A stretch of 64,000 nucleotides of DNA, from positions 10,740 to 74,739 of IMG/VR virus record IMGVR_UViG_3300010362_000014, one strand, 5' to 3'. The notes beneath the pieces are model-generated. The model did no database searches. It had not been told where the DNA came from and was given only the letters and a program-made list of their open reading frames with translations. This DNA is from a virus (taxonomy: Duplodnaviria > Heunggongvirae > Uroviricota > Caudoviricetes). Made by a program: the position numbers and the translations under genes. Shown piece by piece: positions 1 through 53,603 of the stretch. The stretch's first letter is position 1. Every line of letters starts with the position of its first letter.

Positions 1-2
1 CT

Positions 3-15421: not shown

Positions 15422-15424
15422 GTA

Positions 15425-15865: not shown

Positions 15866-15868
15866 ACT

Positions 15869-35685: not shown

Positions 35686-36297
35686 TTAATGGAACCAATT
35701 ATAATAGTTTTCACGTTCCTCGAACCTTATGAACGTCGGTTGTGTGCCTTGTAACATCTGTTGGTGCCACATAAGCATTCTACCAACTCTACCATTACCA
35801 TCTATGAATGGATGAATTTTCTCAAATTCAATATGTAAAATTTTTGGATCTTCACCAGAATTGTACAACTTGATCCAGTCGTCCATAAGATCTGGAATAT
35901 CATTCGGATCTGCCACTCTGGATTGAGTCCCAGTTATATAAACCTTACACTTACGATATTGGCCTATTTCCGGTCCGTGAAGGAAATTAAGCATAATTAG
36001 GCGATGAACTCTTAGTATTATTTCTGTTGTTAGAGTCTTACGTATCCTAAGATAAAACCATGCATCTAGACTTTGATCAATTTCCTTAAGGGAAACAACT
36101 CCCTCAATCATATTAGAATGGCGAATAAGGCTTGCCATATCTGGACCGTTTGTCTTAATCGGCATCGACCTATAGCTTCCATCTGGATTGACAAATGCTC
36201 TTGTTGGCCGATGACAGCATGGCTTTACCCACAAGTTGAGATAATGCGAATATGCAAAACCGAAGCTTGGCTTTGCACAACTACACCATGAAGTCAT
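35686..36297 (-). CDS. Fic/Doc family protein
   Basis: Canonical Fic motif HPFIDGNGRVGR. Confidence 0.75.
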   Translation of the reverse strand: MTSWCSCAKPSFGFAYSHYLNLWVKPCCHRPTRAFVNPDGSYRSMPIKTNGPDMASLIRHSNMIEGVVSLKEIDQSLDAWFYLRIRKTLTTEIILRVHRLIMLNFLHGPEIGQYRKCKVYITGTQSRVADPNDIPDLMDDWIKLYNSGEDPKILHIEFEKIHPFIDGNGRVGRMLMWHQQMLQGTQPTFIRFEERENYYNWFH

Positions 36298-36565: not shown

Positions 36566-36587
36566 TTTGCCTCCTATTTCTATCTTG

Positions 36588-36660
36588 CGCCCCTAGTAGG
36601 ACTCGAACCTACAGCCTACGGATTAGAAGTCCGTTGTTCTATCCCTTGAACTATAGAGGC
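36588..36660 (-). tRNA. tRNA-Arg (anticodon TCT)
   Basis: Hand-folded cloverleaf. Acceptor GCCTCTA/TAGGGGC, D stem GTTC/GAAC, anticodon stem ACGGA/TCCGT with loop CTTCTAA, T arm GTAGG-TTCGAGT-CCTAC. Confidence 0.75.
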
Positions 36661-36674
36661 ACTGAATCCATATT

Positions 36675-36968
36675 CTATCCTAACGTTATATTTGCTCCAT
36701 AATGACTACTAAGTTCTTCTTGATACATATCACGCTCACGTTCCATAGATTCCGCTAGCGCTTCGAAGTACTCTTCTTGTGTAATTATTCCCCTAGCCAT
36801 GAGGACTGCGACTAACGCCGAATGGTCCACCATTGCCGAATTTACACCAACTCTAAGATGCTTTGGCGATGTTTCTGCCCCATCAAGTTCCATCTTTGCT
36901 GTTACACCGGATTGCATCGCATGCAGAGCATCATGGTACCTTTGTATAGAGGATTCCATATCCGTCAT
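36675..36968 (-). CDS. hypothetical protein
   Basis: ORF. Confidence 0.3.
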   Translation of the reverse strand: MTDMESSIQRYHDALHAMQSGVTAKMELDGAETSPKHLRVGVNSAMVDHSALVAVLMARGIITQEEYFEALAESMERERDMYQEELSSHYGANITLG

Positions 36969-37222
36969 TCGCTCTCCTTCCCACCACCAGCATCAATGAT
37001 AAGCAATAGGTTATCAGGCTCGCCAAGCCTTTTCCACCAACTCTTCCTGATGTAAATTGTATCAACAACCGGATAAGTCTCATCATCTATGACGGCCTTA
37101 AACTGTACTGTATTCTTCGTTTCCTTCTGCCAAACCATAGTAACTTCTGCAGCACTTTTCATATCTAATCAATCCTTAGTTCCTTAGTTCCTTACATGCT
37201 ACAAGTACAATTCATTAGTTTC

Positions 37223-37972
37223 TTAATATGGTAGTCTATTAATCAATGGCATACGATATCCACAATTTCTACAAACAATACAAGAAACCGCCATCGTCGA
37301 TTCAATCTCTTTTTGTGATTGATACGACACCAAGCCACACCTACATTTGCGACTAATTATATCATGTTCGGACTCGTGTTTAGGTTCGGATAGAATCGCA
37401 TTGATATTTTGTAGAGGAAATTCCGTTTCTAAGTATCTGAGTCCCAGATAACACGGGACCTTATATAGCCCGGCAATATGCCGGAGTAGTGAACCTTGCG
37501 TATTATTACCACAAATGGCCGTAATTTTAGCATATTCGGCTCTGAATCCACTTTCACCTAATATTACCTTTCCCCACGCATCAAAGCATCCATATATTGC
37601 ATACGGGCTCCTACAATGCGCAAAAATATTAGTGGGATTATAAACACCATATACACCACAAGTGCAATCTATTGCAGGAGCAGGATGGTCAAAGTGTGGA
37701 TTATTACGATTCTTTCCAGAAGCGTACAAGCACCTAGCCTTTATTTTTGTAACTGGCCACTTAATCCGATAATCGTTGACAGACGTTAGATAGGAATATT
37801 CTCCCCATGAAGTATGATCCCATGGGATATGATCCCAATCCTGGGCATCCCAATAGGACTTCACATCAAGGTGTTGTAGCTTTGGCATCCATGCCCGATA
37901 TCCTCGTAGCTTGCCTGGGACTAATAATCTCTCTGGTCCGGTAAATGTCATTAGATATCCCTTAGATTTCAT
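37223..37972 (-). CDS. hypothetical protein, RGYR-W/GFRAE family paralog B with C-terminal zinc ribbon
   Basis: Paralog of 34915..35439, plus a C-terminal CRCG...CIVCRNCG. Confidence 0.4.
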   Translation of the reverse strand: MKSKGYLMTFTGPERLLVPGKLRGYRAWMPKLQHLDVKSYWDAQDWDHIPWDHTSWGEYSYLTSVNDYRIKWPVTKIKARCLYASGKNRNNPHFDHPAPAIDCTCGVYGVYNPTNIFAHCRSPYAIYGCFDAWGKVILGESGFRAEYAKITAICGNNTQGSLLRHIAGLYKVPCYLGLRYLETEFPLQNINAILSEPKHESEHDIISRKCRCGLVSYQSQKEIESTMAVSCIVCRNCGYRMPLINRLPY

Positions 37973-38396
37973 ATTTTTCTTTAAATCGGACCTGCTGGCC
38001 TCCCGTTACGCCTATTACCAAGCCCGTGATCGGTAAATTGGACTAAGTAACCAGCAGATCCTTTATTTTGAGAGGGGGAAATAATAGGTTAATCTAGAAT
38101 CCCCTACCATCCAGGGCGCCCGCCCAAAGTTTGCCTGTCAAGATTCGAACTTGAATTTTCAGATCCATGATCTCAGGCAAATACCTTAGACGCTGATCTT
38201 ATGTATAGAACATTCATTTTCCGGATCAAGCATGTCGATATATAGGCTACGCCCGGTTTCGTCATCTGGAATAAATACTATTGGACATATACACTTGGGA
38301 TTCTTAATTCTATAAATCATCTCTTGGACTTCATCGAGTCTATCGTGAATTTTATCGATATAATCTAATGAACTGTAATTAAATAAATCGAGAAAC

Positions 38397-38939
38397 CTAC
38401 GTAACCTTTGAAACATAATTTTCCATCGCTATCTCGAATTGTTCCGGAAGATCCCAACCTAACTCTATAAGTCTTCTTATTGCCTTAACTGTTGCGCCGG
38501 CGCCTTGACCGTCGAAAACAGCACTGTTCATTACGTAATCTAGGGCATCGGTATATCCGCGATCTATAACCAGGAACGGTAGCACATTATGAAGTATTAC
38601 TGCCATTGATGCGCCAGTCATTGTCCACTTAGATGTATTTACTATTCCGCCTTTGGCAAGAAATGGATATTCATCATGCATTGCCCATACATGCACATGA
38701 GGCTCGGGACAATGTTCGTTACATGCCCGCCGCATCCAATCCTTGGTAGCTCTCGACTCAGAAATCTCCGGTTTTGTTCCAGTAAGCGACGAGAGTTTGC
38801 GAACCACGGCAAGCTCTTTAGTTTGAACATATAAAGTTAACTGTCTTGTATTACGTGTTTTATTTCGTTTTTCGACAATTCTTCCTTTAAGGTCGATGAC
38901 TCCTGCCATCCACCCAAGCTGTTGAGCTGGAATACTCAT
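38397..38939 (-). CDS. hypothetical protein
   Basis: ORF. Weak resemblance to LAGLIDADG (GWMAGVIDLKG) is not relied on. Confidence 0.25.
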   Translation of the reverse strand: MSIPAQQLGWMAGVIDLKGRIVEKRNKTRNTRQLTLYVQTKELAVVRKLSSLTGTKPEISESRATKDWMRRACNEHCPEPHVHVWAMHDEYPFLAKGGIVNTSKWTMTGASMAVILHNVLPFLVIDRGYTDALDYVMNSAVFDGQGAGATVKAIRRLIELGWDLPEQFEIAMENYVSKVT

Positions 38940-39477
38940 GTCTTCTCAATCTTATTTTCCGTCTTCCAAGAATTGAAGGTATCACTGGATACCCTTCTGG
39001 GTATCATTACATCACCATATACATACATGAGCAGCCAATACTCACCGCACTCACACTGCCAAATAGTTCTATCTTCTCTATTGCTGATTCCTGATACATC
39101 GCACTTATGCAATTTTCCTATTATCTTACCGCTCATTTGCCCATCTTCTTTAACAGGACCTGTGATAGTATAACTTTCAGGCGATTCTTTTTCTCATCAT
39201 CATCGAGATGAATGCCAGAATTATCTATAGCGTATGATAATGCTAGATCCAATAACTGCAAGTCCTGGTAATCCAGATTCGCAAGCTTGTATCGTTTACC
39301 GATCATTCATGCCTCGATCTACTTTTCATTTTTTCTTGTATTTTCACTATCCGATCTAGATCTACAGGTAGCGTAGATCTAAACTCTACCGGAGCATAGT
39401 TGAAATAGAAGTCTATGATACTTACGAGTGCCCTTACATCATCTTTGGTTAAACTTAAACTCAATCTATCGGTCATG

Positions 39478-39551
39478 TGGGACAGGTGAGACTTGAACTC
39501 ACGATTACCATTTTATAAGAATGGGGCCTTAACCATCTTGGCCACTGTCCC
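39478..39551 (-). tRNA. tRNA-Ile (anticodon TAT)
   Basis: Hand-folded. Acceptor GGGACAG/CTGTCCC, anticodon stem CCATT/AATGG with loop CTTATAA, T arm GTGAG-TTCAAGT-CTCAC. Confidence 0.65.
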
Positions 39552-39862
39552 TGGGCTAGCCTAAGCTAGCTTTTAATCATATAAATGCTTGTATTTCCGT
39601 CTAACTTGGCGTCTAATCTTACGCTTAAGTCTAAAAACTCTAAACTTTCGTAACAGGTAGTATCCATATGCTACTATAATTATCATAGTAGCAACAAATA
39701 CAGCCTGGAGTACGCTCACTTACGCTTCTTCGATTTTGACAAAAAACTCGGTGCCATCTTGTGTTTCCACCGCGATCTCGTTTTCACTAATGATTTCAAC
39801 AGTGTTGAGTTGATTTGAATCAAGTAGAAGACTCTCCAATTCCCTAAGTAGCTGCTTTAACG

Positions 39863-40342
39863 TCATCTTAGACAACCAATCTGTTCGACCTTCTCAGATA
39901 GCGTAGGAGCCTGTCTCGGAACATCAGGTGGCTTGACTAGCTTTGCCTTGAAAGCATTTGCAAGTTCGGCATTGTATCTAGCCTGTATGCTATTGTAGTT
40001 TGCTTCTCGCGCTAATGTTTGCGAAACTCGCTGTACTTTGATAGCCGGATCTGTCTCTGCATCTTCGGCCTTCTTAGCCGAACACCAATTCAGCGCCGAT
40101 GCCGTCAATGACTTATCGTAGGTGTAAGCAAAATCCCATTCAGAACTGACATGCTGTGGACTTATGATGTTTGCACCCGTGCTAAACCAACCACTAAGTA
40201 ATCCGATTACGGTAAATATTATACCAAAAATCAGAAATACTCCAATAGTTTTAAAGAGTAATCCAATTGGAGTCTGACGACGAAACCACCCAACTTCAGA
40301 CGAGTACTCATCGTCATGCATTTGTCCGAATGTTCTACCCAC
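39863..40342 (-). CDS. membrane protein
   Basis: N-terminal TM helix (IGVFLIFGIIFTVIGLLSGWF). Confidence 0.35.
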   Translation of the reverse strand: MGRTFGQMHDDEYSSEVGWFRRQTPIGLLFKTIGVFLIFGIIFTVIGLLSGWFSTGANIISPQHVSSEWDFAYTYDKSLTASALNWCSAKKAEDAETDPAIKVQRVSQTLAREANYNSIQARYNAELANAFKAKLVKPPDVPRQAPTLSEKVEQIGCLR

Positions 40343-40988
40343 TATGCACCAACCCTAGCAGTGCCGCCGCAGCAGGACATGGTGAGTCTGGCCTTGGATC
40401 TTTTGCCCTACACTTCTTTAATTCCGTCTGAACTTGTGCATCAATCGTATGCAAATCTACACCAGATGATACGGTAATATCAATCTTTGTAGACTGTTTT
40501 TGAATCACATCTGGAACATTGGTGCAATACATTTCTAGATTTGTAAAATCGTGATAGTTCCCGGCAGGGTCATATCCATATCTATATTCAGAACTTGTTC
40601 CATACATGCCTTGATCGTCAGGCAGTTCAGGATTGTACTTATATAGATAAGTGTTGTTATCTCCGTTATCGACCTCAGTAGTTGGCTTAGGCCGCTTATT
40701 GCTTGATGTTAACTTTCCAGCAATTGGCACTGTAAATGCTGCTGCATTTGGATTAGATGGATATGCAGTACACCAAATTAGTGCTGATGGATCATCAGAT
40801 TGAATGAGACGTGCGTTGTAATTGTGACCTTCGACATCATTCTTTGGTATATAATTCTTTCGATTATCTGCTACGTCCTTCGCTGTTGGGTTTTTAACAG
40901 TGTTATCCGATGTGCAAGCGCAACTAACCGTCAATAAAATTGGGATAGATGCTACTGCCACAATTTTCATCAATCTCGCAATGTTCAA
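40335..40988 (-). CDS. putative lipoprotein
   Basis: Signal peptide with a lipobox-like LTVSC(AC). Confidence 0.4.
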   Translation of the reverse strand: MNIARLMKIVAVASIPILLTVSCACTSDNTVKNPTAKDVADNRKNYIPKNDVEGHNYNARLIQSDDPSALIWCTAYPSNPNAAAFTVPIAGKLTSSNKRPKPTTEVDNGDNNTYLYKYNPELPDDQGMYGTSSEYRYGYDPAGNYHDFTNLEMYCTNVPDVIQKQSTKIDITVSSGVDLHTIDAQVQTELKKCRAKDPRPDSPCPAAAALLGLVHSG

Positions 40989-40991
40989 GTT

Positions 40992-41912
40992 CTATCCTTT
41001 TGTCGTTGGTACGTTCACTAATCCACTATTCATCATACAAAGACCGGGCGCAATTCCCATCTCCCGAGAATATTCAATACACTTGTTCTGGACATATTCG
41101 GGTGTTAGAACCGGACGCAGTTTGTCCGATACTGCCTTTTCCTTGTCAGCATTCAATCTCTGCTGATCAAGAATTCTCGATTGTAGAACAACATCCTGGA
41201 ATTTCTTGATGTTCTCTTCAGTCTTGGCGTCATGATGCACAATGGGAATAGCAACTGTATAAATTTTAATGCCAAATTGCTCAACTGCCTCAGACAGCCG
41301 CCGCTTCATGTCCTCTGCAAGTTTAGCACCATCGAACGTAGTTTGTCCAGTACGAATGTCAACTTGGGCCAATGGGTTATAAGTTGCAAAAGTAGCATTT
41401 AGGGCATTTTGAATTTCTAGATCTACAAAGTTTGCCTTAAGGTTATTAAAATCTCCCTTATATGTCTTATACAAAATCGGGGCCTGATCGCCTACTACCT
41501 GCCACTGAATCCGATTTTCTACACATGCAGTGGCAAGAGAACCGATACGAACTACCGTACAGCCATGATCCCAATCACCAATATGGTTTTCAGTGATCCT
41601 AGACGCATCAAAGTCAGCGACTCGCTGCCACGGCCATACAAACTTTAGTCCATTACCTGTTACGCGACCTGTTGGAGCGCTAAAACTAGTAACAATTCCA
41701 ATGTTGTTGACCGGTACTTGATAAGCACATGCAAAGAATAGAAAAATTACCGCGATGAATCCCAAACCTAATGATACAATTTTGCTGGTAGATTTCCATG
41801 GAATATCGTCTCTACGACTTCTTTCTTCATCTGGCTTCGCCTTAATCGCAACACTTACAAAAGCTACGGCTAAAATAAGAAAGAATATGAATGCAATGAA
41901 TTCAAATGACAT
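40992..41912 (-). CDS. SPFH/band-7 (prohibitin/HflK-like) domain membrane protein
   Basis: N-terminal TM segments followed by VPVNNIGIVTSFSAPTGRVTGNGLKFVWPWQRV, which is SPFH-like. Confidence 0.55.
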   Translation of the reverse strand: MSFEFIAFIFFLILAVAFVSVAIKAKPDEERSRRDDIPWKSTSKIVSLGLGFIAVIFLFFACAYQVPVNNIGIVTSFSAPTGRVTGNGLKFVWPWQRVADFDASRITENHIGDWDHGCTVVRIGSLATACVENRIQWQVVGDQAPILYKTYKGDFNNLKANFVDLEIQNALNATFATYNPLAQVDIRTGQTTFDGAKLAEDMKRRLSEAVEQFGIKIYTVAIPIVHHDAKTEENIKKFQDVVLQSRILDQQRLNADKEKAVSDKLRPVLTPEYVQNKCIEYSREMGIAPGLCMMNSGLVNVPTTKG

Positions 41913-42263
41913 TTGTGGTCGTTTTCTCCTTATTGTATTATAGCCCGATTTGACTATAGTAGGCCGCCAGGGTATTGATCCCTGTTCTCTAGATTAAAAG
42001 TCTAGAGCATCACCTTAATGCTTGCGGCCCAATCAAATTATGAGTTAAATGGATTTACGTACCCATTCGGGTCCTGCGTCATTAATATCATATTCGATTT
42101 TTCCTTCGACGCCGGTTATGCCTCTGAAAGCCGCTGTAGCAGGTTCATCTGGCCTATCCATTGTATTATGAAATCCAGCATTACGCTCGATTCTAACGTA
42201 TTCTTCTTTGGGAACTTCCATCCATTCCAAATCGGTTGAAATTTTTATAAAATATTTATTCAT

Positions 42264-42985
42264 TTATTCTTCTCGTTCCTTCTTGTGCTCTTCTTCAAAG
42301 AAGTCTACTACCGCTGCACCTGTACTCTGCCCACTAGCATATGATTTTGTGGCAGACCTTAACGTTGTAAATGTTGTATTATATGATGCAGCACTTCCGG
42401 TTGTACCAACGGTATTTGCTGCACCAACCAGGCCAACACCTTGACTCCAAGCATCTGCCCCGGCACCTAGATAAACGAATGTCCACTTATCGGTTGCCTG
42501 AAGCTCACTAATCAACTTGCGAACCGTATCAAAGTCATATTCCTGACTTGCATTTTCCAAGCCGTCTGTCTGGATAACAACAAGAACTTTATCATCGTCT
42601 TGTAATACGGTAGATTTACGGAATTCATTTATCGTTTTGCCTACCGCATCGAATAATGCGGTAAAACCGGCGGAACATAATTACTATTATTTAATTCAGG
42701 CACTTCAGCTGGAACCTTGTTCATGCATAAAGTTACAAAATCAGTATCAAATAACGTTGCCGTAACTAAGCATTCAGTTTGGTCCTCAATAAGACCTTTA
42801 ATATATGAATTGAAGCCACCTCGAACATCCTTCGCCACAGGCGACATGGATCCTGACATATCAGTGATGGTTAAAATATAGGTTGTCATATTATCTCCAT
42901 TCAATATTTTCCTTAGATGGAAAGAATGTGGGCGATCGTGTTTCCAGTTCACGAGTATCCAAAATATCTTCTTCCCAACGATCAA
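42264..42985 (-). pseudogene. von Willebrand factor A domain gene split into two ORFs (42641..42985 N-terminal part with the MIDAS motif DMSGSM, and 42264..42560 C-terminal part)
   Basis: The MIDAS motif is in the upstream ORF and the rest of the vWA-like fold in the downstream ORF. The two are separated by an 80-nt frame break. Confidence 0.4.
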
Positions 42986-43632
42986 CGATTTTTCGAATTA
43001 TTTCCATATCGACAACGCGAATAGCTCCTCGAAATCCGTCATAGTTAACATCGAAGACTTGACGAACGAATTTCATACGTGCTTCATTATCCATCTTTAT
43101 TCTCTTCTAATTTGGATTCGTATACAACTTCCGGAAGGGGCTCACGCGCTTCGTACATAATTTATTCCGTTATCGAGCCACATATCAAAGTGAATCGCCT
43201 GACCATCCGTCAAGTAGCAGCACAGCCATATACGATCGTTATCCATCCGTTCCATACGGAATGTCTCAACATAGTTTATAACGACATCATCGAGGCCGAG
43301 ATCATCATACCTTAGCGCAATTCGATAGTCATCACTCATCTTTATCCTTATTCGGATCTAATGAGTCGCTAGATGGTATTTTTGTAGTATTCACTTCTTG
43401 CCATATCTCAATCAGATGTCTAGCTTCGTCAATGGCAATCAAATGGTGATCAGGGGATCCTGCTTCATCACACAGGTCATAGTAGATCCGTAACATTAAT
43501 GGTAATAGCTTGTCTTGTGCTCGAAATACTACAACTGGTTCGTCATCCGCAATGGTTCCGCGTTCTGTTGTTACGCTTCCATATTTCGAATCAATTGCCA
43601 CTACTTTCCTCATTTCTCTTAGTACGTGTTTG

Positions 43633-43705
43633 TACCCCTGACAGGATTTGAACCTGCGACATGCGATTTAGGAAACCGCTGCTCTATCCACTGAGCTACA
43701 GAGGT
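43633..43705 (-). tRNA. tRNA-Arg (anticodon CCT)
   Basis: Hand-folded. Acceptor ACCTCTG/CAGGGGT, D arm GCTC-AGTGGATA-GAGC, anticodon stem GCGGT/ATCGC with loop TTCCTAA, T arm GCAGG-TTCAAAT-CCTGT. Confidence 0.75.
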
Positions 43706-43886
43706 AGTGCTAGAATGAATCTCATCGAGGTGGCACCTGTATCAGAATGCGCAACGAGGCTTACGATCCATTCTAGCTTTAGAAGCAAAATCTTAGCCTT
43801 TACTACAAGAGCAACCGAATACAAGACAATCGAAATTGCTTCTAGCTTCAATCGTCCGTTTTATGTATCTATATCGTTTAGATTGC

Positions 43887-43945
43887 TACATATGATGAGG
43901 TTATAACTACATATGATGAGGTTATAACTACATATGATGAGGTTC
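43887..43945. repeat. tandem repeat, about 2.8 x 21 bp (ctacatatgatgaggttataa)
   Basis: Read directly. Overlaps the stop codon of 43928..44305. Confidence 0.75.
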
Positions 43946-44305
43946 TAGATAGAAACGCCTCTTTGGTAGAGAACTTCCTATATGATTACATTTGTAGAAC
44001 GATTTTGCATTACAGCATGGGCGAATTCCATCAATCATGGTAGTACCATGTTCGTCAATAACAGAAATCTTGACGATATAATTTCCACCTTGACTTATTA
44101 TTATAGGTAGATTCTTGTTGTTCTTAGCTCTGCGCTCGGCGGCTTGGGTTAGTTTTAATTCATGACCCGTCGGCTCACCACGGGTACGGGCAGTTTTATT
44201 AGCGGCCTCACGAAGCTCCTGAGCGGCCTTGCGCTGTGCCTTACGAGCCGCAGTGTGCGCACGTGCCTGCGCCGCGTCCTTCTTTTTCGGTGGATTATTT
44301 GCCAT
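43928..44305 (-). CDS. basic (K/R/A-rich) protein, possible DNA-binding
   Basis: The N-terminal 60 aa are highly basic. Confidence 0.3.
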   Translation of the reverse strand: MANNPPKKKDAAQARAHTAARKAQRKAAQELREAANKTARTRGEPTGHELKLTQAAERRAKNNKNLPIIISQGGNYIVKISVIDEHGTTMIDGIRPCCNAKSFYKCNHIGSSLPKRRFYLEPHHM

Positions 44306-44766
44306 ATATGATCAATTCCTTTCAAGAATTATAGTTTTCTATTGATTCGTAATATTATTAAACCAATTAATACTCCTAAGATAAAGGCTATTGCATCAAT
44401 AACTATTCGTTCTAGAGTCATTTTATTACCGGCTCTCATAATCCGGCTAATTGGCTTTGGCTGCAGGAAGTCAATCCAACCTTATCCTTTTCGTGTATGG
44501 CAATCTGGCTAACTATCTCCATCGCTAACCTTTCCAGTCGTAAAATATACATTCTACGAAATGTATATTCTAGCCTGTCAGGCAATCTCTTTCGCCGCCA
44601 AGTAGTTGCCTAATCACCTTGATCTCCGCCAATCTCGGAGGACAAATCCTCTTTAGAAGTTAAAACATTACCCCCCTAGAAGATAAATCTTCCAGACTGT
44701 AACTGCGACGCATATGTTATTTATGCCTACACTATTAAGACTGACATATATTATTTAAGCATTTAT

Positions 44767-45249
44767 TTATGTCCTAATGCCTAATTTTTCTAATTCTATC
44801 AGATACTGCTGACGTACTGCTCGTGCGATCACGAAAATTTCTTCTTCATACTCCGGAAGGAGAGTTACATCTTCGAATTTCGGATCACTTCGCGATTCAA
44901 GAGCCGCCAACGATGTTGTATTGCTAAGATTCACGGCCACGTGTGGCACACCGTCCGGAATGAAAATAGACTCATATTTCCCATGAATCATGGAAATCCA
45001 TTTTTTATCATCAAAAATTAATGTTGCTGCTGTGCCCTCTAAACAGGTAACTATAATTTCACTATGCTCATGAACATGAGCCTTAGATACACCCCCAGGT
45101 TGCATAATGATTAACCCCTGAGAGATAAATTCAGATCCAGATGTTTCTTCAGTAATTAAAGGGTAAACCTTTTGCCCCTGTGGAGATGTAACCGGTTGAA
45201 TCTTGTGTGCTGAAATTATAGTTACTCGTTTAGTCATGGTTTTATCCAA
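44767..45249 (-). CDS. cupin-domain protein
   Basis: G(x)5HxH(x)3E ... G ... H ... N pattern (QPGGVSKAHVHEHSE ... PDGVPHVAVN). Confidence 0.5.
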   Translation of the reverse strand: MDKTMTKRVTIISAHKIQPVTSPQGQKVYPLITEETSGSEFISQGLIIMQPGGVSKAHVHEHSEIIVTCLEGTAATLIFDDKKWISMIHGKYESIFIPDGVPHVAVNLSNTTSLAALESRSDPKFEDVTLLPEYEEEIFVIARAVRQQYLIELEKLGIRT

Positions 45250-45638
45250 TCCGTTAAAGTTGCTAATTAGCTCATTCGTCGTCTACATTCATCTTCACCC
45301 AAATCGGATTCCAATATACACGATCCCATTGAAGATTACCATCTTCGTCATAACCGCGGAGAGTTATGCGTTTATTTTTGGCTCTCCATCTAATATTATA
45401 CGCGGAAAGGTTGACGACTTCTAGAACAACTACAGATTTGTAAAAAAGCTTAACTCTCATATTTACTTATACTCCACAATCGGTACAAAGATTGGTATCA
45501 AATTCTAAATCCTATCTTTTTCACCTTAAGCTATTACTCACGGTCAGCCCCCGGAGTTGTTGTTAAACTTCTCCATAGACCTAATAGCACCAGCCGGCTT
45601 TTGTATAAGGTCCGAAAAGATAGGGAGAAACGTGGCAG

Positions 45639-45721
45639 CGGAAGATAAAGGAATCGAACCCTCATGTTGTTAACATGGCACGGTTTTCAAGACCGATTGA
45701 GCACCTTGCTCGCTATCTTCC
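45639..45721 (-). tRNA. tRNA-Ser (anticodon TGA), type II
   Basis: Acceptor GGAAGAT/ATCTTCC with a G discriminator, D stem GAGC/GCTC, anticodon stem CGGT/ACCG with loop CTTGAAA, long variable arm CATGTT-AAC-AACATG, and a TTCGATT T loop. Confidence 0.6.
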
Positions 45722-45988
45722 TAATATGGTTCTTCATATCGTGGTATTATATCCTGAAATTGTATGGACAGAATATTAGACAAAATATTCTCCACTATTT
45801 TAGCTTACTAATAATTTCTGTCATATTCCTTCCCTAATAAATTTCTCATACTCTTTGGCTGCATCTAGTACCTTATTCATAAGCTGAATCGAATTCAGCT
45901 GATTCGCATTTCCAGATAGTGCTATTGCAGCTACCCTTAACGCGATAGCTCTAATTTTTTGATCTGTCATATCTAATCCAATCCAATT

Positions 45989-46050
45989 ATATTTATTCGT
46001 GATTTAGTCATAATCTTCCTATATTTATTCGTGATTTAATCATAATCTTC
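45989..46050. repeat. 30-bp direct repeat, 2 copies with 1 mismatch (atatttattcgtgatttaRtcataatcttc)
   Basis: Read directly. Intergenic, downstream of 46036..46329. Confidence 0.7.
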
Positions 46051-46329
46051 AAATCCTGATGTGAACTCATCAGGATTTACTTTTATAGCTCGACAAATTT
46101 TTACCCAAAACTCATTTGCATGTTTCGTACATAAATCTCGATGATGTTTATAGTTCACGCATAGCTCCGGATTTAAGTAAATAATAAGCTCTTGTCGATC
46201 ATCATTATCATCATATGGATCATCAGATATATCAGTACCACATACATCACATTTATATGTGGCTTCCTTGACATAAATAGTCTCAACTTTCTCGGAAATT
46301 CTGATCTGCCGACTCATACTATTCCTCAA
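46036..46329 (-). CDS. small zinc-finger protein
   Basis: CDVCG...C...H...C. Confidence 0.3.
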   Translation of the reverse strand: MRNSMSRQIRISEKVETIYVKEATYKCDVCGTDISDDPYDDNDDRQELIIYLNPELCVNYKHHRDLCTKHANEFWVKICRAIKVNPDEFTSGFEDYD

Positions 46330-46645
46330 GATTATTTGTTCGATCCGTATGTCTATCCACCCATGACCAGAAAAGGTTAGTATTACTTATGAGATTCAAT
46401 CCCCAATGACCATTCTTCATGTATCTCCACTGGGGTCTAGTTTCCGTTTTATGAGTTTTAGAATCCCATTTATATAATCTGCCATATCTAGGAATGTTAT
46501 TTAATATGCCAATTAAGTTGACAATTTTATCTTGAGTCCGTATACTACATTTTTCTTCAATTTCGTTCGCAACATATGTGATTATCGGTTGAGTTAGCTT
46601 ACGGGGAGTTCTTAATATTATACTTAATATACGATTGAAATTCAT
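46319..46645 (-). CDS. hypothetical protein
   Basis: ORF. Confidence 0.25.
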   Translation of the reverse strand: MNFNRILSIILRTPRKLTQPIITYVANEIEEKCSIRTQDKIVNLIGILNNIPRYGRLYKWDSKTHKTETRPQWRYMKNGHWGLNLISNTNLFWSWVDRHTDRTNNLEE

Positions 46646-47565
46646 CTCAATCTCGATCTAATCGGCAAGCAAGCCTCACCCTGCTCAGATATCAATCTAG
46701 ACATTGCCGATCTTTTAATCTTTGCACATCCGTTTATTCCCCAACCTGGTCCCCACGAATTATGTAAGATATAGCAATCTTCCTTGAGATTGATACCCTT
46801 GGCCAAAATACAATGTCCGCCGGCCAATGATCCTGTGGGCTTTATATAGCCATTAATATCTGGCTTGAACATTCCCGTATACCAATTTATGCCAAGAACT
46901 ACTGGACCATGGTATGCAATTGCAGATGCAATCTCTTGTTCGGTATCTGCCCAGTGATACGACAAATAAAAGCTTAATGATGTCAAGACTTTGGCACCAG
47001 CAAGTACAGAGGTGCCTTCATAGAAGGGCACGGCGCCGGGATATGCACCGCCTGGCCATTCATCATTTTGTTGGAATTGAAAATAAAGCGCATTATTCTT
47101 AATAAGATTTGATACCGTATCAAATTTGACCAGGACTGGTCTAGCTAGAAGCTCATGTGAAAATCCATATTGGACACATGTGCCTTCATTACCTTGGTCT
47201 AGATGATATTGGTTTACTTTACTAAAACCAACCGACCAAGTGTAAGACCTAAGTGGAGCTGCAACATCTATGATAGCCGATATTCTGAAATTCCGGCTAC
47301 GAATGTCGGATTGCAAGATTCTACCAAGACGAGGATCAGAAACTACAGATCCATCCTTCAGTCTGGTTCCAGTTCTAGCCATTCTGACCAAGATTCTATC
47401 AAATAGGACCAAGAATTCATATAATATAAAGTGACTACCCCAACGATTGGGGGACTCAGCCTGGGGACAACTGGTATAATCGTTGGGGTAGTCACGTCTT
47501 GTTGTTACTATTCGTAATCTGTCCAATTTGATATGATATTCTGGAAGAATTAATATTCCATGCAC
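46642..47565 (-). CDS. papain-like cysteine peptidase (C1 family-like)
   Basis: Order of triad segments: NEGTCVQYGFSH (Cys) ... GGHCILAKG (His) ... ILHNSWGPGWGINGCAKI (Asn-Ser-Trp-Gly...Trp-Gly). Confidence 0.5.
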   Translation of the reverse strand: MHGILILPEYHIKLDRLRIVTTRRDYPNDYTSCPQAESPNRWGSHFILYEFLVLFDRILVRMARTGTRLKDGSVVSDPRLGRILQSDIRSRNFRISAIIDVAAPLRSYTWSVGFSKVNQYHLDQGNEGTCVQYGFSHELLARPVLVKFDTVSNLIKNNALYFQFQQNDEWPGGAYPGAVPFYEGTSVLAGAKVLTSLSFYLSYHWADTEQEIASAIAYHGPVVLGINWYTGMFKPDINGYIKPTGSLAGGHCILAKGINLKEDCYILHNSWGPGWGINGCAKIKRSAMSRLISEQGEACLPIRSRLR

Positions 47566-47729
47566 GACATTTGGAAGTATAGCGAGATCATCGCGAAGAG
47601 CACCTTGTTGATATATTGAGACATCGTTTAATCTTTACCATCTAATTAAAGTGTATCATTTGATTAAGACAGGTTTACTAGAGCTCAATCCTTTTCACTC
47701 AGTAACACGCTCTCCCTCGCTATACTTCG

Positions 47730-47801
47730 AGACCCTGACAGGATTTGAACCCGCATAAAGACGATTTGCAATCGTCTGCCTATCCATTCGGCCACAGGAT
47801 C
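47730..47801 (-). tRNA. tRNA-Cys (anticodon GCA)
   Basis: Acceptor GATCCTG/CAGGGTC with discriminator U, D arm GCC-GAATGGATA-GGC, anticodon stem GACGA/TCGTC with loop TTGCAAA, and a TTCAAAT T loop. Confidence 0.65.
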
Positions 47802-48145
47802 ATAGTTGTCCGGCAGATCTAACTCCCAGAAATAAATCTTATTTCTGATCATGACTAGTCTTGGCTTAGGAGGGTGCTTTAACCAGACAACGTTGTACTA
47901 CCACATTGATGTACTCAGACCGCAGACCAGCGAGGGCCTACGTCTAATATTGTCCATTTTATTGTTCGTTATCCGTTTTATTATCCACAATTTCTGATGT
48001 TATTCTAGCATAATTCTGGAATTGACTATCTGTCAGGGTTCTAATCTTTTTACCAAGTTCGTTTTGCCGTCTAGTTAGTAGATTTTCTGCTCGAATAACA
48101 AGTCTGAAAGCCTCAACGGCATTTGCAACTTCAGGATCCATCATG

Positions 48146-48229
48146 TGCGGACGACGAGACTTGAACTCGTATGCTCTCTAGAGCGGAAACTTTTAAGGTT
48201 TCTGTGTATGCCGATTCCACCACGCCCGC
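48146..48229 (-). tRNA. tRNA-Leu (anticodon TAA), type II (bldA-like specificity)
   Basis: Acceptor GCGGGCG/CGTCCGC with discriminator A, anticodon stem GAAAC/GTTTC with loop CTTAAAA, variable arm GCTCT-AGA-GAGC, and T arm ACGAG-TTCAAGT-CTCGT. Confidence 0.7.
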
Positions 48230-48710
48230 AGTTATATATTTTTACTGGCTTTGGCGGGGAGGAGCCGATACCCTTCGACCCCTCCCCTTTTTCTCGGATA
48301 AGAAACTATGATTTTCTACCGAAAATTGGGTCAGTATCCCACCAACGCCGTTTAAAGATGCAAATCAATCTTTAAGACTTTGCGTACTGCCATTATACGA
48401 TTTCCCCATGGGTATAGTCTTTAGAGTATATGAATATAATTTTGCAGGAATGAATATAATTTTGGAGGGGAAACCAGGATTCGAACCTGGACACAAATGT
48501 CACTGTATGCATCTGCTCGATTTGGTGTTCGTGCCTTTGTTACCACGAGACTAGAGCGATAATCTCAATCTTACATGGATTTATTTTGCCAATTAAACTA
48601 CTGCGGCACGACTTAAAGCCGCAGGATGGATTCGAACCACCATCTAATCCTGATGAGTTAGACTGATAATGAGTCTAACTATGTAACCCGTGCGCTCTAA
48701 TCACGGGAGT

Positions 48711-49448
48711 CTATGCGAAAAGATATCCAAAGACTACGTTAGATACCTTGACATTATCAACTTCTGTTGAATTTGCTCGTTCTCTGGCTACCTTTACGGC
48801 ATCGGTAAGCTTACGTACTCGTTCAAGTAATTCACTTGAACGAGTAGCCGGAATAGCACCCGAGAATCGTGTGGTATCCCAATAGCCGACGAGCACGTCT
48901 TCTTGATAGGGCTGAACCTGAGCCGGATGTTTTTCGGTCGCCTCATAGAGCACAAAAGCTTTCGGTACTTTCTTGCTTTTAACAGTAGTAGTTACCGGGG
49001 AGCGGTATGTTCCGGTAGTAGAATCAAATTCCCATTCAACCGAAGGATCAAGAAGTGGAAGCTTACTAACGAATGTGCTAATATCAACCAGCTTCTTTTC
49101 CAAGAAGAGAAGATATGTCACCGGCACATTTGCTAATAAAACGGTGCCGTCGATGATAACATCGGCTTTAGCTGCTGTATTACCAGTCTCTAAGGTGGCC
49201 GTCAAATCGAAAAGTCGAGAAAGTGACTTTGATGCTCTATCTAAAAGATTATCTACCGTTATCTGAACCGCATTGCCCTCATTTGGATAGACATCGCCCT
49301 CGTCATCCTTACGACGATAGACTCTGGTCAGTCCGCTTAGTGGTTCTGCCCGCTGTGAATCGTGGTGAACTTTGGTAAATGATGTTTCTGCTCTGTTCTT
49401 TTCACCCTTAACTAGGGCGATAACCTGATTAAGTAAGGCCATTCTCAT
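48711..49448 (-). CDS. hypothetical protein
   Basis: 245-aa ORF. Confidence 0.35.
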   Translation of the reverse strand: MRMALLNQVIALVKGEKNRAETSFTKVHHDSQRAEPLSGLTRVYRRKDDEGDVYPNEGNAVQITVDNLLDRASKSLSRLFDLTATLETGNTAAKADVIIDGTVLLANVPVTYLLFLEKKLVDISTFVSKLPLLDPSVEWEFDSTTGTYRSPVTTTVKSKKVPKAFVLYEATEKHPAQVQPYQEDVLVGYWDTTRFSGAIPATRSSELLERVRKLTDAVKVARERANSTEVDNVKVSNVVFGYLFA

Positions 49449-49654
49449 CCTTATCCAATAACAATTTTAAATTAATCGTATGGTACATCGTAGCCTCGCC
49501 GGGAATCGAACCCGGTCTTAACGCAGACCGACAGAGCGCAAAGCTAACCAATACTCAACAAGGCCAAGCGGCTAATATAGTGGCAGGCAGTCCCACTCAT
49601 CCTGCACTTTGGGCAAGGGCTAATTAGGAATCCCCTCGCACTATATTAGCCTCG

Positions 49655-49728
49655 TGGCTGGTAAGAGAATCGAACTCCTAACGTCCACCGTTCATAAACG
49701 GATTTGACGCCTCACCCAATATCCAGCC
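49655..49728 (-). tRNA. tRNA-like gene, anticodon arm non-canonical (possible tRNA pseudogene or unusual tRNA)
   Basis: Acceptor GGCTGGA/ACCAGCC, D stem TTGG/TCAA and T arm AGGAG-TTCGATT-CTCTT are fine. The anticodon region CCGTT-TATGA-AACGG gives a 5-nt loop. Confidence 0.3.
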
Positions 49729-49841
49729 TGTTCTCGGGTAGCGAGTATAACGCTGGTGCCGGCCAAAATTCCCATACCCGAATAGGGGACCCTCATGAAT
49801 TTCACATATTTCCCCACCTTCTCAGATGAGAGTTCTATATA

Positions 49842-50258
49842 TTACAGATTTGCAACAAGTCCATTAGTTGTATCGGTCACGGTAATATCTACAAAACTAA
49901 CCGTCATGGGAGGATCGCAGCTAGGACTAAGTTCCGCAGTTAAAGTCAAGGTAAAGTCCGCTTTTCCGTTTTGTACCGGGAAATCGCCTTCTGCTGTAAG
50001 ATCTTCTTTGTTAACTGCTTTAGGATGGTTACCGCCACCGTTTATACATAATGCCGTAGCGCTTACTACAACATGAATTTGTTCTTCATCGCCGAGACCT
50101 GCTTCTTTGCCGACCACAGTCAATGTGGTGTCTGTTTGTGTTGCTGAGAAAGCCGAGTCGATGAAATGTGGACTTCCAGCGAACGCCGGGATTGGAACGA
50201 GCAGGACCATGATTATACCAGAAATCATGATTAGTCCGACTCGACCGATACCTTTCAT
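49842..50258 (-). CDS. secreted/exported protein with N-terminal signal peptide
   Basis: MKGIGRVGLIMISGIIMVLLVPIPAFA followed by a T/S-rich beta-like sequence. Confidence 0.4.
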   Translation of the reverse strand: MKGIGRVGLIMISGIIMVLLVPIPAFAGSPHFIDSAFSATQTDTTLTVVGKEAGLGDEEQIHVVVSATALCINGGGNHPKAVNKEDLTAEGDFPVQNGKADFTLTLTAELSPSCDPPMTVSFVDITVTDTTNGLVANL

Positions 50259-50296
50259 AGAGCCTCCATATAGTATATGAAGGAGAAATCCTTCGT

Positions 50297-50370
50297 GGCG
50301 GGTAACGGATTTGAACCGCTGATCTTCGGCTTATGAGGCCGACGGGAACGACCGAGCTTCCCCAACCCGC
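50297..50370 (-). tRNA. tRNA-Met (anticodon CAT; initiator, elongator or Ile-lysidine type not resolved)
   Basis: The 3' half GTCGGCCTCATAAGCCGAAGATCAGCGGTTCAAATCCGTTACCCGCCA closely parallels bacterial tRNA-fMet. Anticodon stem TCGGC/GCCGA with loop CTCATAA, D stem GGAA/TTCC. End coordinates are +/-2 nt. Confidence 0.6.
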
Positions 50371-50494
50371 TTTGAGGTAGTCAATTAGATTGCCTACCGA
50401 ACTGCGCCACCCCGCTTTGGATTAATTCACGGTATTATTTATACTATAATCTTTGATTAATATTATGTGATTGAATCGAATACTTATATTTGCT

Positions 50495-50749
50495 TTACCA
50501 CCATAGCCACTGCGCGATATGACGGTGTTGATAAGATGGCGTTTCTATATCAGTTTCACTGTTTGCTCTATAATCCTTGATTGCATTTACTACATCTATG
50601 CGCACCTTCGCACGCTGCGGGCCGTACCATACGTGATTTATGTACCATTTCGGTGGGCTTCGAAACCAATGATATGGATAGACTTCTCTGTTTCTAAGAC
50701 GATATGGTACATCTTTGTCTGTTCTGGACATAACGTAGGCTCCTTTCAT
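50495..50749 (-). CDS. hypothetical protein
   Basis: ORF. Confidence 0.25.
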   Translation of the reverse strand: MKGAYVMSRTDKDVPYRLRNREVYPYHWFRSPPKWYINHVWYGPQRAKVRIDVVNAIKDYRANSETDIETPSYQHRHIAQWLWW

Positions 50750-50764
50750 GAACCTTACGTCATA

Positions 50765-51109
50765 TCAATCACCTCCAAGGTCTATATTACCATGAACTGA
50801 ACACGCCTCTTTAGGACAAAGGAAATTGTCATCATCAGGCCATAGTTTATTCGCTACTTCGCAGGGATTAGAAATTGGTTGTCTATAACGAAGTTTTTCG
50901 TATTTACATTCCAGACTCATGGCTGCGGATATTATACGCCATCCTATGTAATCCAAGAATTGAATTTTATAGGGTAGTTTCATTAATGAATTACATTGCG
51001 AACACAATATTTTTTCTGTTAGATACGAAACCGTGAGAGCCCAAAATGGAACATCGACAATTCTAATATCGGCGCCATCTTTATGATATGATACGTGAAC
51101 CTTTAGCAT
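50765..51109 (-). CDS. hypothetical Cys-rich protein
   Basis: ORF. Confidence 0.3.
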   Translation of the reverse strand: MLKVHVSYHKDGADIRIVDVPFWALTVSYLTEKILCSQCNSLMKLPYKIQFLDYIGWRIISAAMSLECKYEKLRYRQPISNPCEVANKLWPDDDNFLCPKEACSVHGNIDLGGD

Positions 51110-51120
51110 ATAAAACCCCT

Positions 51121-51194
51121 ATTTAACCCCAACTAGACACAGATTGTGGTTTAACTAACCCTACCGCCCATGGAGATCTGTGTCTAGTTGGGGA
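51121..51194. terminator. perfect 18-bp inverted repeat hairpin (CCCCAACTAGACACAGAT ... ATCTGTGTCTAGTTGGGG)
   Basis: Read directly from the sequence, immediately upstream of (5' to) the minus-strand gene 50765..51109. Terminator versus operator role is unresolved. Confidence 0.4.
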
Positions 51195-51590
51195 GTGTAT
51201 CATTTCTGTATACTTTGGTACATATTAATTATGTGTGGGACCAGGCCAATCATATGTCGGGCCGGGCCAGTCAGTGAATTCCCAATCCATAATAATCCTT
51301 AAAGTTAACATTAATATTATAGCCGCTTTACATTACGTTGGGTTCTCCACGAATGGATTTACAATTCAGACTTTTTGGGTCTAATGAGCCTCAATTATAA
51401 AGGGAAATAGGTGTGGTGGTGCCATTCCTAACCCCTACCTGTAAAAAGCTACCTTATTCATCCTAAGCTTGTTCTTAATTTATCCTAAATCAAGCCCCGC
51501 ACGAAAGGAATACATTATTCAATCGCAGAGGTTTAAACAAGCTCCTGTCCGGCATTTGTATAGGATCCGAAAGATAGCAAAACGTGAACG

Positions 51591-51665
51591 AGCCTTGCGT
51601 GAGGTTCGAACTCACAACCTAATCCCTACAATGGATTTGCTCTGACCAATTAGAGCTAGCAAGGC
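51591..51665 (-). tRNA. tRNA-Thr (anticodon TGT)
   Basis: Acceptor GCCTTGC/GCAAGGC, D arm GCTC-TAATTGGTCA-GAGC, anticodon stem AATCC/GGATT with loop ATTGTAG, T arm GTGAG-TTCGAAC-CTCAC. Confidence 0.75.
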
Positions 51666-53243: not shown

Positions 53244-53603
53244 TTATAAATCACGTTCGATTATATTTGCTATTTCCTCGAACGATGCTCCAGAGTCATT
53301 AAATCCTGCTAATGTATTGCTCGAATTAGCGATCCATGGATTATTAGATCTTAACTCAGCCCAATCAATAACTTCATCTGGCAGATAGGAATGAGATTTA
53401 GAACTACCATAATTCCCGTCATAATCATCCATTGGTGACAGACTCGAATTAATAACACCATCCGCTACCGCGATTTCATACAGGACTCCGAGGCAGCAAT
53501 AATGATATGATCCATCCTGGAACTCTGCAAGATAACCATCACCTTGTTTGTATTCTCCGCTTCTTAGAGCTGCAATCCAACGTTGCTTAATATTCTGATT
53601 CAT
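53244..53603 (-). CDS. hypothetical protein, tandem paralog 1 (IKQRWIAALRSG...CCLGVL family)
   Basis: Shares the N-terminus and the C-terminal FEEIANII motif with 53634..53981. Confidence 0.4.
   Translation of the reverse strand: MNQNIKQRWIAALRSGEYKQGDGYLAEFQDGSYHYCCLGVLYEIAVADGVINSSLSPMDDYDGNYGSSKSHSYLPDEVIDWAELRSNNPWIANSSNTLAGFNDSGASFEEIANIIERDL

Follow-up and report, generated by a model that had tools for sequence, protein, structure and literature searches.

A dispersed tRNA set in an uncultured AT-rich siphovirus probably supplements codons that are scarce in a high-GC actinobacterial host

Introduction

Phage T4, an AT-rich myovirus of the more GC-rich E. coli, is the textbook case of codon supplementation; its eight tRNA genes lie in one tight cluster and include decoders for UUA, AUA, AGA, ACA and UCA, codons that the phage uses commonly and the host rarely. 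Here we describe a tRNA set in tailed-phage DNA (Caudoviricetes) from IMG/VR record IMGVR_UViG_3300010362_000014. The 64,000 nucleotides analysed (positions 10,740 to 74,739 of the record, one strand, 5′ to 3′) are called the window, and coordinates without further label count from its first letter. The window forms one end of a metagenome contig of 88,602 bp (ENA ERZ27257142 k141_588889), and judged by its genes the element is a new uncultured siphovirus with a genome of at least 88.6 kb and 41% GC. Compared with those of T4, the tRNA genes of the window are dispersed, encode only C74 of the terminal CCA and belong to a putative actinophage. They probably serve to supplement codons that are scarce in a high-GC actinobacterial host.

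The closest described counterparts are phages of Streptomyces, 28 of which have genomes below 53% GC and carry 36-46 tRNAs (PMC7453282). One of them, Coruscant (MT711976, cluster BE; the low-GC group also comprises BK and BRock), has 48% GC, a host of 72% GC and 41 tRNAs, which its authors relate to codon usage or to counteracting a tRNA-based defence (PMC7650747). The likeness to the element in the window is extensive. Both would be low-GC lytic phages of an actinobacterium with about 70% GC; in both the tRNAs are spread over many kb (24 kb in Coruscant) among small open reading frames (ORFs), together with an RNA ligase gene. All anticodons of the window occur in Coruscant (Leu-TAA, Ile-TAT, Arg-TCT, Arg-CCT, Lys-TTT, Ser-TGA, Cys-GCA, Thr-TGT, Asp-GTC and Met-CAT), the holins and RNA ligases are related, and both show the same junctions at which an ATG directly follows C74 of a tRNA. 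The Coruscant region also holds a Ro-like protein and, as an oddity, a tRNA with a two-base anticodon. The two differ in that there is no nucleotide similarity, the tRNAs being 52-68% identical; the replication module of the window has a DNA polymerase A fused to uracil-DNA glycosylase (PolA-UDG) and a DUF3987 primase, that of Coruscant DnaE, DnaB and a primase. The tRNA set of the window is smaller and selective (9-11 against 36-41), and its GC content is 41% against 48%. A phage-borne tRNA-Leu(UAA) is thus not new, as Coruscant already has one.

Parts of the gene order recur in NiceHouse (MT521992, Rhodococcus) and Phendrix (MN096369, Gordonia), both of which have a DUF7873 gene in the tRNA array with the same RNA element after it. 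NiceHouse shares with the window the order tRNA-Lys(TTT) then Band-7 (gp121), which is also found in the uncultured relative L057, and Phendrix shares the order tRNA-Asp, DUF7873, tRNA-Leu. Their DUF7873 proteins, however, are 49-52% identical to that of the window, their genomes measure 121-143 kb with at least 30 tRNAs, and the rest is unrelated.

tRNA genes of the window

ARAGORN identifies 11 tRNA genes between 36587 and 51665, all on the minus strand. Nine are canonical and two are aberrant tRNA-like genes, scattered among small ORFs. The counts cover the 64-kb window and the 8.5 kb to its left, out of the 88.6-kb contig.

36587-36660, minus strand: tRNA-Arg(UCU), reads AGA (ARAGORN; Rfam 71.9 bits; 7-nt anticodon loop)
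39477-39551, minus strand: tRNA-Ile(UAU), reads AUA (ARAGORN; Rfam 63.8 bits)
41959-42030, minus strand: tRNA-Lys(UUU), reads AAA (ARAGORN; Rfam 49.2 bits)
43632-43705, minus strand: tRNA-Arg(CCU), reads AGG (ARAGORN; Rfam 66.1 bits)
45638-45721, minus strand: tRNA-Ser(UGA), class II, reads UCA (ARAGORN; long variable arm, G73)
47729-47801, minus strand: tRNA-Cys(GCA), reads UGC/UGU (ARAGORN; Rfam 54 bits)
48145-48229, minus strand: tRNA-Leu(UAA), canonical class II, 85 nt, reads UUA (ARAGORN; Rfam 51.3 bits)
49490-49565, minus strand: aberrant tRNA-like gene called Asp(GUC) (ARAGORN; Rfam 36.4 bits)
49654-49728, minus strand: aberrant tRNA-like gene with a 6-nt anticodon loop, UUAUGA (called tRNA-?(Ile|His) by ARAGORN)
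50295-50371, minus strand: tRNA-Met(CAU), initiator-like (ARAGORN; Rfam 53.1 bits)
51590-51665, minus strand: tRNA-Thr(UGU), reads ACA (ARAGORN; Rfam 51.8 bits)

The original prediction, made by eye from the sequence, had named eight of these (Arg-TCT, Ile-TAT, Arg-CCT, Ser-TGA, Cys-GCA, Leu-TAA, Met-CAT and Thr-TGT). All eight are real, with the same anticodons and places on the minus strand by ARAGORN and with support from Rfam; the list lacked Lys-TTT and the two aberrant genes. Its statement that all except the Met tRNA read A/U-ending codons is slightly off, since Arg-CCT decodes the G-ending AGG and Cys-GCA decodes UGC besides UGU. The gathering score of the Rfam tRNA model RF00005, 29 bits, is exceeded by nine of the 11 genes, at 36-72 bits (E 3e-14 to 2e-4): seven of the eight named earlier, Lys-TTT and the Asp-GTC call. 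That many matches within 15 kb are far beyond chance. The best Rfam match of tRNA-Ser(UGA) is the tRNA-Sec model, at 42.1 bits and under that family's cutoff. A regular 5-bp anticodon stem with a 7-nt loop is present in nine genes and missing from 49490-49565 and 49654-49728. C74 is encoded in all 11; position 75 is never C, and none encodes CCA. Because only C74 is encoded, maturation would depend on the CCA-adding enzyme of the host.

In the ARAGORN structure, tRNA-Leu(UAA) forms a cloverleaf with a 4-bp variable-arm stem, an 11-nt D loop and A73. The class II shape, the UAA anticodon and A73 plausibly make it a leucine acceptor. Its closest match is a Leu-TAA, 80% identical, in IMG/VR contig L025; BLAST against phages gave at most 76% identity, always to unrelated phages. 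tRNA-Lys(UUU) is 88% identical to the Lys-TTT of relative L042. The tRNA-Met(CAU) has an unpaired A1/C72 (an unusual mismatch), G11:C24, and an initiator-like T loop, UUCAAAU, and anticodon arm, UCGGC-CUCAUAA-GCCGA; of the three G:C pairs at the foot of the anticodon stem, only two are oriented as in initiators. The Coruscant CAT tRNA has the same AGCGGGTT start and GGG:CCC in the anticodon stem. The tRNA in the window may be an initiator.

The two aberrant genes are adjacent. The anticodon arm of the Asp-like gene can be drawn either with a 9-nt loop, CUGUCGGUC (Rfam alignment), or with a stem containing C.C and U.U mismatches (ARAGORN), and its discriminator is A; the Asp-GTC genes of the relatives have a normal loop and G73. 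We considered whether this odd arm is conserved and rejected the idea: its 18-mer matches six IMG/VR contigs, a number in line with chance, and in no case within a tRNA. The gene at 49654-49728 has no match to the Rfam tRNA model, only one to tRNA-Sec at 18 bits (E 1.3). The pair could be pseudogenes, decoys or something else. A short, weak Rfam tRNA match is also seen at 38130-38180 on the minus strand (23 bits, E 0.84), which may be a tRNA remnant.

Codon demand and supply

The GC content is about 41% along the whole window, and its 92 ORFs have a GC content at third codon positions (GC3) of 35%. Per 1000 codons these ORFs contain TTA 19.1, ATA 25.8, AGA 20.5, AAA 26.1, ACA 22.9 and TCA 15.8 times; TTA occurs 327 times, in 75 of the 92 ORFs. 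As a reference for the candidate host family we took eight Micromonosporaceae loci, which have 70-73% GC and hold no tRNAs themselves, and counted the 33,103 codons of 77 long ORFs in them. In this reference TTA, ATA and AGA occur 0.27, 0.54 and 0.76 times per 1000, and UUA is the rarest sense codon. When the 61 codons are ranked by the ratio of phage to host use, TTA is first (67x), ATA second (46x) and AGA fourth (27x). Taken together, UUA, AUA, AGA, AAA, ACA and UCA are used by the phage 10-67x as often as by such hosts.

The anticodons largely follow this demand. The T-ending codons that rank between those named are read by abundant GNN tRNAs via wobble. Among the 14 A-ending codons, the six for which the phage has a tRNA are the rarest in the host reference (p 0.01). 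The anticodons of the window rank 1, 2, 3, 5, 7, 9, 14, 17, 24 and 27 of 44 (Mann-Whitney p 6e-4); the rank tests are conditional on the inferred host group. The codon-supplementation idea also survives the two findings that the original prediction had itself named as fatal. The first was failure of a tRNA predictor to return the TAA, TAT, TCT or CCT anticodons, all of which ARAGORN confirms. The second was lack of enrichment of the matching codons, and the phage ORFs are rich in TTA, ATA and AGA relative to Micromonosporaceae DNA, by the ratios given above.

Relatives with the same layout

The SNF2 helicase gene downstream of the tRNA region served as an anchor for finding relatives.

31393-32742, minus strand: SNF2 helicase (Pfam)

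With this anchor 18 contigs were found in IMG/VR, at 41-67% protein identity and 40-55% GC; a scan of IMG/VR with the Band-7 protein found nothing. Many of the 18 resemble the window in having scattered tRNAs upstream of the helicase, on its strand. The anticodons recur: TGT and TTT at eight loci each, TCT and CTT at six, TAT, GTT and TTG at five, TGC and CAA at four and TAA at three. Their frequency correlates with the phage/host codon ratio (Spearman 0.65, p 2e-6). A closer relative, L057 (46% GC), was reached through DUF7873. It shares seven anticodons with the window (Met-CAT, Ser-TGA, Leu-TAA, Thr-TGT, Ile-TAT, Lys-TTT and Arg-TCT) as well as DUF7873, Band-7 and SNF2, in similar order.

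tRNAs with the same anticodon are often unrelated in sequence among the relatives. The Leu-TAA genes of L030, L032 and L042 are class I-like and 72-77 nt long, against the 85-nt class II gene of the window. It thus looks as if these decoders were acquired more than once, which would suggest repeated selection. We note that the genes and their anticodons, the codon usage of the phage, its match to scarcity in the candidate family and the recurrence of the anticodons are all matters of direct observation.

The probable host

Genes that bear on the host include the following.

30497-30892, minus strand: DUF397 protein (Pfam 1.9e-36), with five tandem N-terminal copies of a WxKSSYS..G.CVEV motif; host marker
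60391-61209, minus strand: DhnA-type class I aldolase (Pfam DeoC), in a GC-rich island; host marker
17691-17918, minus strand: holin (phrog_443, 1e-17); host marker
57867-58508, minus strand: RNA ligase (Pfam PF09414, 1.3e-13)

Every taxon-informative gene points to Actinomycetota, and from this gene content the host is most likely a high-GC actinobacterium. Our single best guess is a Micromonosporaceae-like host; Streptomyces is possible and is not indicated. The aldolase is the one clearly host-derived gene. It has 63% GC and GC3 of 69%, compared with 35% for the phage, and not a single TTA or ATA codon. Its best named homologues are 55-60% identical and all from Micromonosporaceae (Actinoplanes, Catenuloplanes, Phytohabitans), and a scan of one genome per species gave eight close relatives, from Actinoplanes, Paractinoplanes, Catenuloplanes and a Micromonosporaceae metagenome-assembled genome. 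The neighbouring ORF encodes an acidic protein of 256 aa with GC3 of 48% and no family match. The island formed by the two (60391-62337, minus strand) looks like a recent import from the host.

The DUF397 gene is present as first predicted, although its use as a sign of a Streptomyces-type host is not supported. Its named homologues are all from Actinomycetota (Streptomyces, Pseudonocardiaceae, Nocardiopsis and Amycolatopsis); the family is general to that phylum, and the aldolase is closest to Micromonosporaceae. The closest DUF397 homologue (47% identity; 2879-3358 of L017/L018) lies amid an array of 14 tRNAs, on a contig of 66% GC, and DUF397 genes adjoin tRNAs in the relatives L032, L037 and L042. 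Two proteins resemble those of Streptomyces phage Coruscant: the holin, at 45% identity, and the RNA ligase, at 29% identity to the one encoded in the Coruscant tRNA region. The window shares DUF7873 and Band-7 modules with Rhodococcus and Gordonia phages, and the named cellular homologues of DUF7873 are mostly from Actinomycetota. The contig with the closest Leu-TAA, L025, carries a WhiB-like gene.

Proposed function of the tRNA set

We consider it probable that the set supplements codons which are scarce in a high-GC actinobacterial host. Who the host is, and that the tRNAs are expressed, processed, charged and of benefit, we infer from the sequence. The tRNAs would be transcribed together with the neighbouring genes in the minus-strand (early/middle) arm and cut out of the transcript by host RNases. 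The CCA-adding enzyme of the host would complete their 3′ ends and host synthetases would charge them. The supply of decoders for UUA, AUA, AGA, AAA, ACA and UCA would thereby rise, these being codons for which the host is expected to keep only rare tRNAs. The 300-plus UUA codons of the phage, and others like them, would then be translated independently of the scarce tRNA-Leu(UAA), tRNA-Ile(AUA) and tRNA-Arg(AGA) of the host.

Several observations weigh against this explanation. Scarcity fails to explain Arg-CCT (phage/host ratio 2.9), Cys-GCA (2.1), Met-CAT (1.2) and the Asp-like gene (1.0). The window also has no tRNA for seven A-ending codons whose ratios are 4.7-15 (CTA, CCA, GTA, CAA, GCA, GAA and GGA), and the remaining 16 kb or so of the contig may hold extra tRNAs. 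TTA is also found in genes that lie upstream of the tRNAs in the direction of transcription, so that some decoding by the host would still be needed. The ORFs of the host reference were picked by GC3 > 0.85, which somewhat exaggerates the bias. Nor does a spacer match, a prophage or a cultured relative tie the phage directly to a host: megablast of 16 kb against 50,697 phage records returned no nucleotide match, and a scan of 185,579 genomes found no relative of PolA.

DUF7873, its RNA element and possible counter-defence

Three further features lie in the tRNA region.

48711-49448, minus strand: DUF7873 protein (Pfam 6e-96)
48455-48690, minus strand: conserved structured RNA of about 230 nt, directly downstream of DUF7873, with two T-arm-like hairpins
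40992-41912, minus strand: Band-7/SPFH protein (Pfam 2e-15), downstream of tRNA-Lys

The DUF7873 protein has counterparts in Rhodococcus, Arthrobacter and Gordonia phages, at about 50% identity. The tRNA arrays of NiceHouse, Phendrix, L057 and Rhizobium phage RHph_TM21B contain the gene. The association has exceptions, since in a cyanophage the DUF7873 gene has no tRNAs near it. An AlphaFold2 model of the protein is confident (predicted local distance difference test score 91), yet it has no match to a known fold. The RNA element contains a 7-bp stem and a D-arm-like hairpin in addition to the T-arm-like hairpins, and gives a weak Rfam tRNA match (18.6 bits) with an 80-nt insert. Homologous RNAs follow DUF7873 in L057 (9090-9325), Phendrix (L055 12828-13056) and NiceHouse (L053 20870-21105), and in an alignment of the four sequences 16 of 38 pairs show compensatory changes.

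The element may be Y-RNA-like. Bacterial Ro60 (Rsr) and its Y RNA (YrlA) offer the comparison: relatives of the window have a TROVE/Ro60 gene, tRNA-like RNAs that match YrlA below threshold and an RNA ligase in the array, and a Ro60/TROVE gene adjoins DUF7873 in L057 and in a Joint Genome Institute (JGI) contig. The window has a tRNA-like RNA at the syntenic spot but neither a Ro60 gene nor a YrlA match.

On a rival reading of the set, counter-defence, the phage tRNAs would mainly replace host tRNAs that are cleaved or depleted in infection by anticodon nucleases, VapC/MazF-type toxins, retron or PARIS effectors or phage-induced shut-off, with the RNA ligase and the Ro60/Y-RNA-like module of the relatives serving repair. 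We regard this as unlikely to be the main role. The RNA ligase at 57867-58508, the pairing of tRNA arrays with Ro60/TROVE and RNA ligase genes in the relatives and in Coruscant, and the conserved tRNA-like RNA next to DUF7873 all speak for it, as does the presence of Lys-UUU, a classic nuclease target. A role of phage tRNAs against tRNA-directed defence is also supported in mycobacteriophages and T5 (PMC10264068, PMC11555353). On the other hand, the nine canonical tRNAs of the window have ordinary 7-nt anticodon loops, no polynucleotide kinase was found, and the window has no Ro60 gene. Counter-defence moreover does not require the excess of demand over supply that predicts the choice of anticodons well. 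The roles in supplementation and in defence are compatible rather than exclusive.

tRNA-Leu(UAA) and bldA

The bldA tRNA of S. coelicolor and the tRNA-Leu(UAA) of the window have in common the UAA anticodon, the class II shape and A73, the latter tRNA being phage-borne. The original prediction had proposed that such a tRNA would free phage genes containing TTA from bldA-dependent control of UUA decoding in a Streptomyces host. Bypass of bldA is a plausible hypothesis, and the idea is not new; the features of the tRNA fit a leucine acceptor. UUA is also the codon that the phage over-uses most relative to actinobacterial DNA, and a DUF397 gene and a Coruscant-like holin are present. To our knowledge, developmental control of the bldA type is documented for Streptomyces only. 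Relative to an unverified version of the bldA sequence, the tRNA-Leu of the window is identical at 60 of 84 positions, which means little; BLAST of the same unverified sequence against phages matched no Streptomyces phage tRNA. According to the literature, UUA is usually absent from Streptomyces phages and, where it does occur in phage genes, could make them dependent on bldA (PMC10732093; PMC13350457).

As an account of this set, a Streptomyces host with escape from bldA is nevertheless improbable. The sole clearly host-derived gene, the aldolase, points to Micromonosporaceae, and the best-named homologues of DUF397 come from Streptomyces and also from Pseudonocardiaceae, Nocardiopsis and Amycolatopsis. 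At least six tRNAs, Leu-TAA among them, obey one scarcity rule, and Leu-TAA therefore needs no special explanation.

Junctions between tRNAs and ORFs

Two tRNAs of the window, Ile-TAT and Leu-TAA, end in A73-C74 and are followed without a gap by an ATG.

39303-39476, minus strand: 57-aa ORF, its ATG flush with C74 of tRNA-Ile (junction 39476/39477)
47959-48144, minus strand: 61-aa ORF, its ATG flush with C74 of tRNA-Leu(UAA) (junction 48144/48145)

For the ORF at 39303-39476 the complementarity to the anti-Shine-Dalgarno sequence upstream is nil (free energy 0.0), and a public gene caller picked the same start. The 61-aa ORF has no homologues among 1.8 billion representative proteins and is thus an ORFan. 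The possibility that the two ORFs are paralogues was rejected by comparison. Across 127 tRNAs (those of the window, the 18 relatives, Coruscant, L025 and L017), 27 are followed at offset 0 by an ATG or GTG that opens an ORF of at least 40 aa, including the two in the window (Poisson p 2e-24); at offsets 1-60 the mean number of such starts is 1.5 and the maximum 5. In the 18 relatives an ATG or GTG follows C74 in 27 of 66 tRNAs, C74 being encoded in 63 of the 66 and CCA in one. Junctions also occur in NiceHouse (2/31), in Phendrix (1/30) and, again at Ile-TAT, in L057. They are not found in T5 (0/23) or in a Rhizobium phage (0/20); in these two phages the tRNA genes include the CCA, and the ORFs begin no less than 10 nt further downstream. 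We also considered the acceptor strand of the tRNA as a Shine-Dalgarno sequence. This was rejected: tRNA tails at junctions are no more Shine-Dalgarno-like than others (p 0.97), and the two in the window have no such signal.

Leaderless initiation in mycobacteria requires, and requires only, an ATG or GTG at the 5′ end; reporters of this kind perform poorly in E. coli (PMC4633059). It is possible, and we propose it tentatively from the layout of the genes, that these tRNA genes double as punctuation, their excision leaving a leaderless mRNA that begins at or within 1 nt of the start codon, a form in which actinobacterial ribosomes do translate mRNAs. CCA addition would finish a tRNA after a cut behind C74. 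The arrangement resembles mitochondrial tRNA punctuation, in which tRNAs lie flush with coding sequences without an untranslated spacer; it differs in that only a minority of the tRNAs of the window are involved. A literature search found no description of tRNA excision creating leaderless mRNAs. We know of no phage for which such punctuation has been demonstrated experimentally.

A stronger version, in which the role of the tRNAs as RNA-processing signals is no less important than their role as decoders, deserves little credence. It would account for the excess of starts at offset 0 without a Shine-Dalgarno signal and for the absence of the pattern from T5 and the Rhizobium phage. The window, however, has just two junctions, one of them leading into an ORFan, and most of its tRNAs are followed by ordinary starts led by a Shine-Dalgarno sequence or by long gaps. 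The ORF after tRNA-Arg(UCU), for instance, starts 21 nt downstream and has a Shine-Dalgarno sequence, and the non-coding gaps after tRNA-Ser and tRNA-Thr measure 177 and 480 nt. The choice of anticodons would also be left unexplained. Directly after the last two tRNAs a motif is shared.

45600-45635 and 51555-51587, minus strand: shared motif of about 45 nt, CACGTTT..CTATCTTTCGGAYCYTATACAAA.GCCGG, directly after tRNA-Ser and tRNA-Thr

That the host is itself of low GC, with the tRNAs adding copies of decoders that are already common, is very improbable: the 40-55% GC of the phage and its relatives and the indirect nature of the host link would allow it, but all taxon-informative genes point to Actinomycetota, the aldolase island with its GC3 of 69% and no TTA or ATA is as expected of a recent GC-rich import, and cultured precedents have a GC gap of at least 24 points.

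Other features of the contig

The identity of the element as a phage is shown by genes for a portal, a protease, a tail tube, a tape measure, a holin, PolA and a primase. The plus strand at 1-17029 encodes the tape measure, Dit, glycine-rich and minor tail proteins. On the minus strand are the holin, PolA-UDG, the DUF3987 primase, a PD-(D/E)XK nuclease, the SNF2 helicase and a Fic protein, along with the Band-7 protein, a cupin, a papain-like protease, DUF7873, the RNA ligase and the aldolase. The 8.5 kb to the left of the window contain portal, protease, capsid-region and tube genes and no tRNA. A small Acb5-like gene (Acb5 being an inhibitor of the CBASS defence) is found in the part of the contig left of the window (L004 422-634).

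19644-21941, minus strand: DNA polymerase A with an N-terminal uracil-DNA glycosylase domain (fusion)
35686-36297, minus strand: Fic/DOC-family protein, about 300 nt downstream of tRNA-Arg(TCT), with one small ORF between
53244-53603 and 53634-53981, minus strand: adjacent paralogous DUF8296 ORFs, 75% identical over the first 81 nt

PolA is at most 32% identical to any phage protein in the 50,697 phage records. In the relative L001 (10001-14215) the polymerase matches as three separated pieces, which suggests that inserted elements split it. Homologues of the DUF8296 pair adjoin tRNAs in two jumbo IMG/VR contigs. In or near intergenic DNA there are short tandem repeats, at 55292-55352, 43886-43948 and 45988-46050 (17 nt x3, 21 nt x3 and 32 nt x2). 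Searches of 40 small ORFs of the tRNA region against Pfam and PHROGs gave almost no matches. Neither sigma-70 promoters (35 sites, 51 in shuffles) nor terminators (10, 11 in shuffles) are in excess in the tRNA region.

Conclusions

An AT-rich phage that carries the decoders neglected by its GC-rich host would be one more case of a known rule, and an extreme one, with about 41% GC set against about 70%. The small and selective set suggests which host tRNAs are probably limiting in high-GC actinobacteria, namely those for UUA, AUA and AGA, then AAA, ACA and UCA. The analysis also reveals an uncultured clade, made up of at least 18 related viral contigs that share the layout, and the DUF7873-plus-RNA module is an unannotated element present in phage genomes in GenBank. 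If the tentative reading of the junctions is true, they would connect the maturation of tRNAs with leaderless translation in the expression of phage genes.

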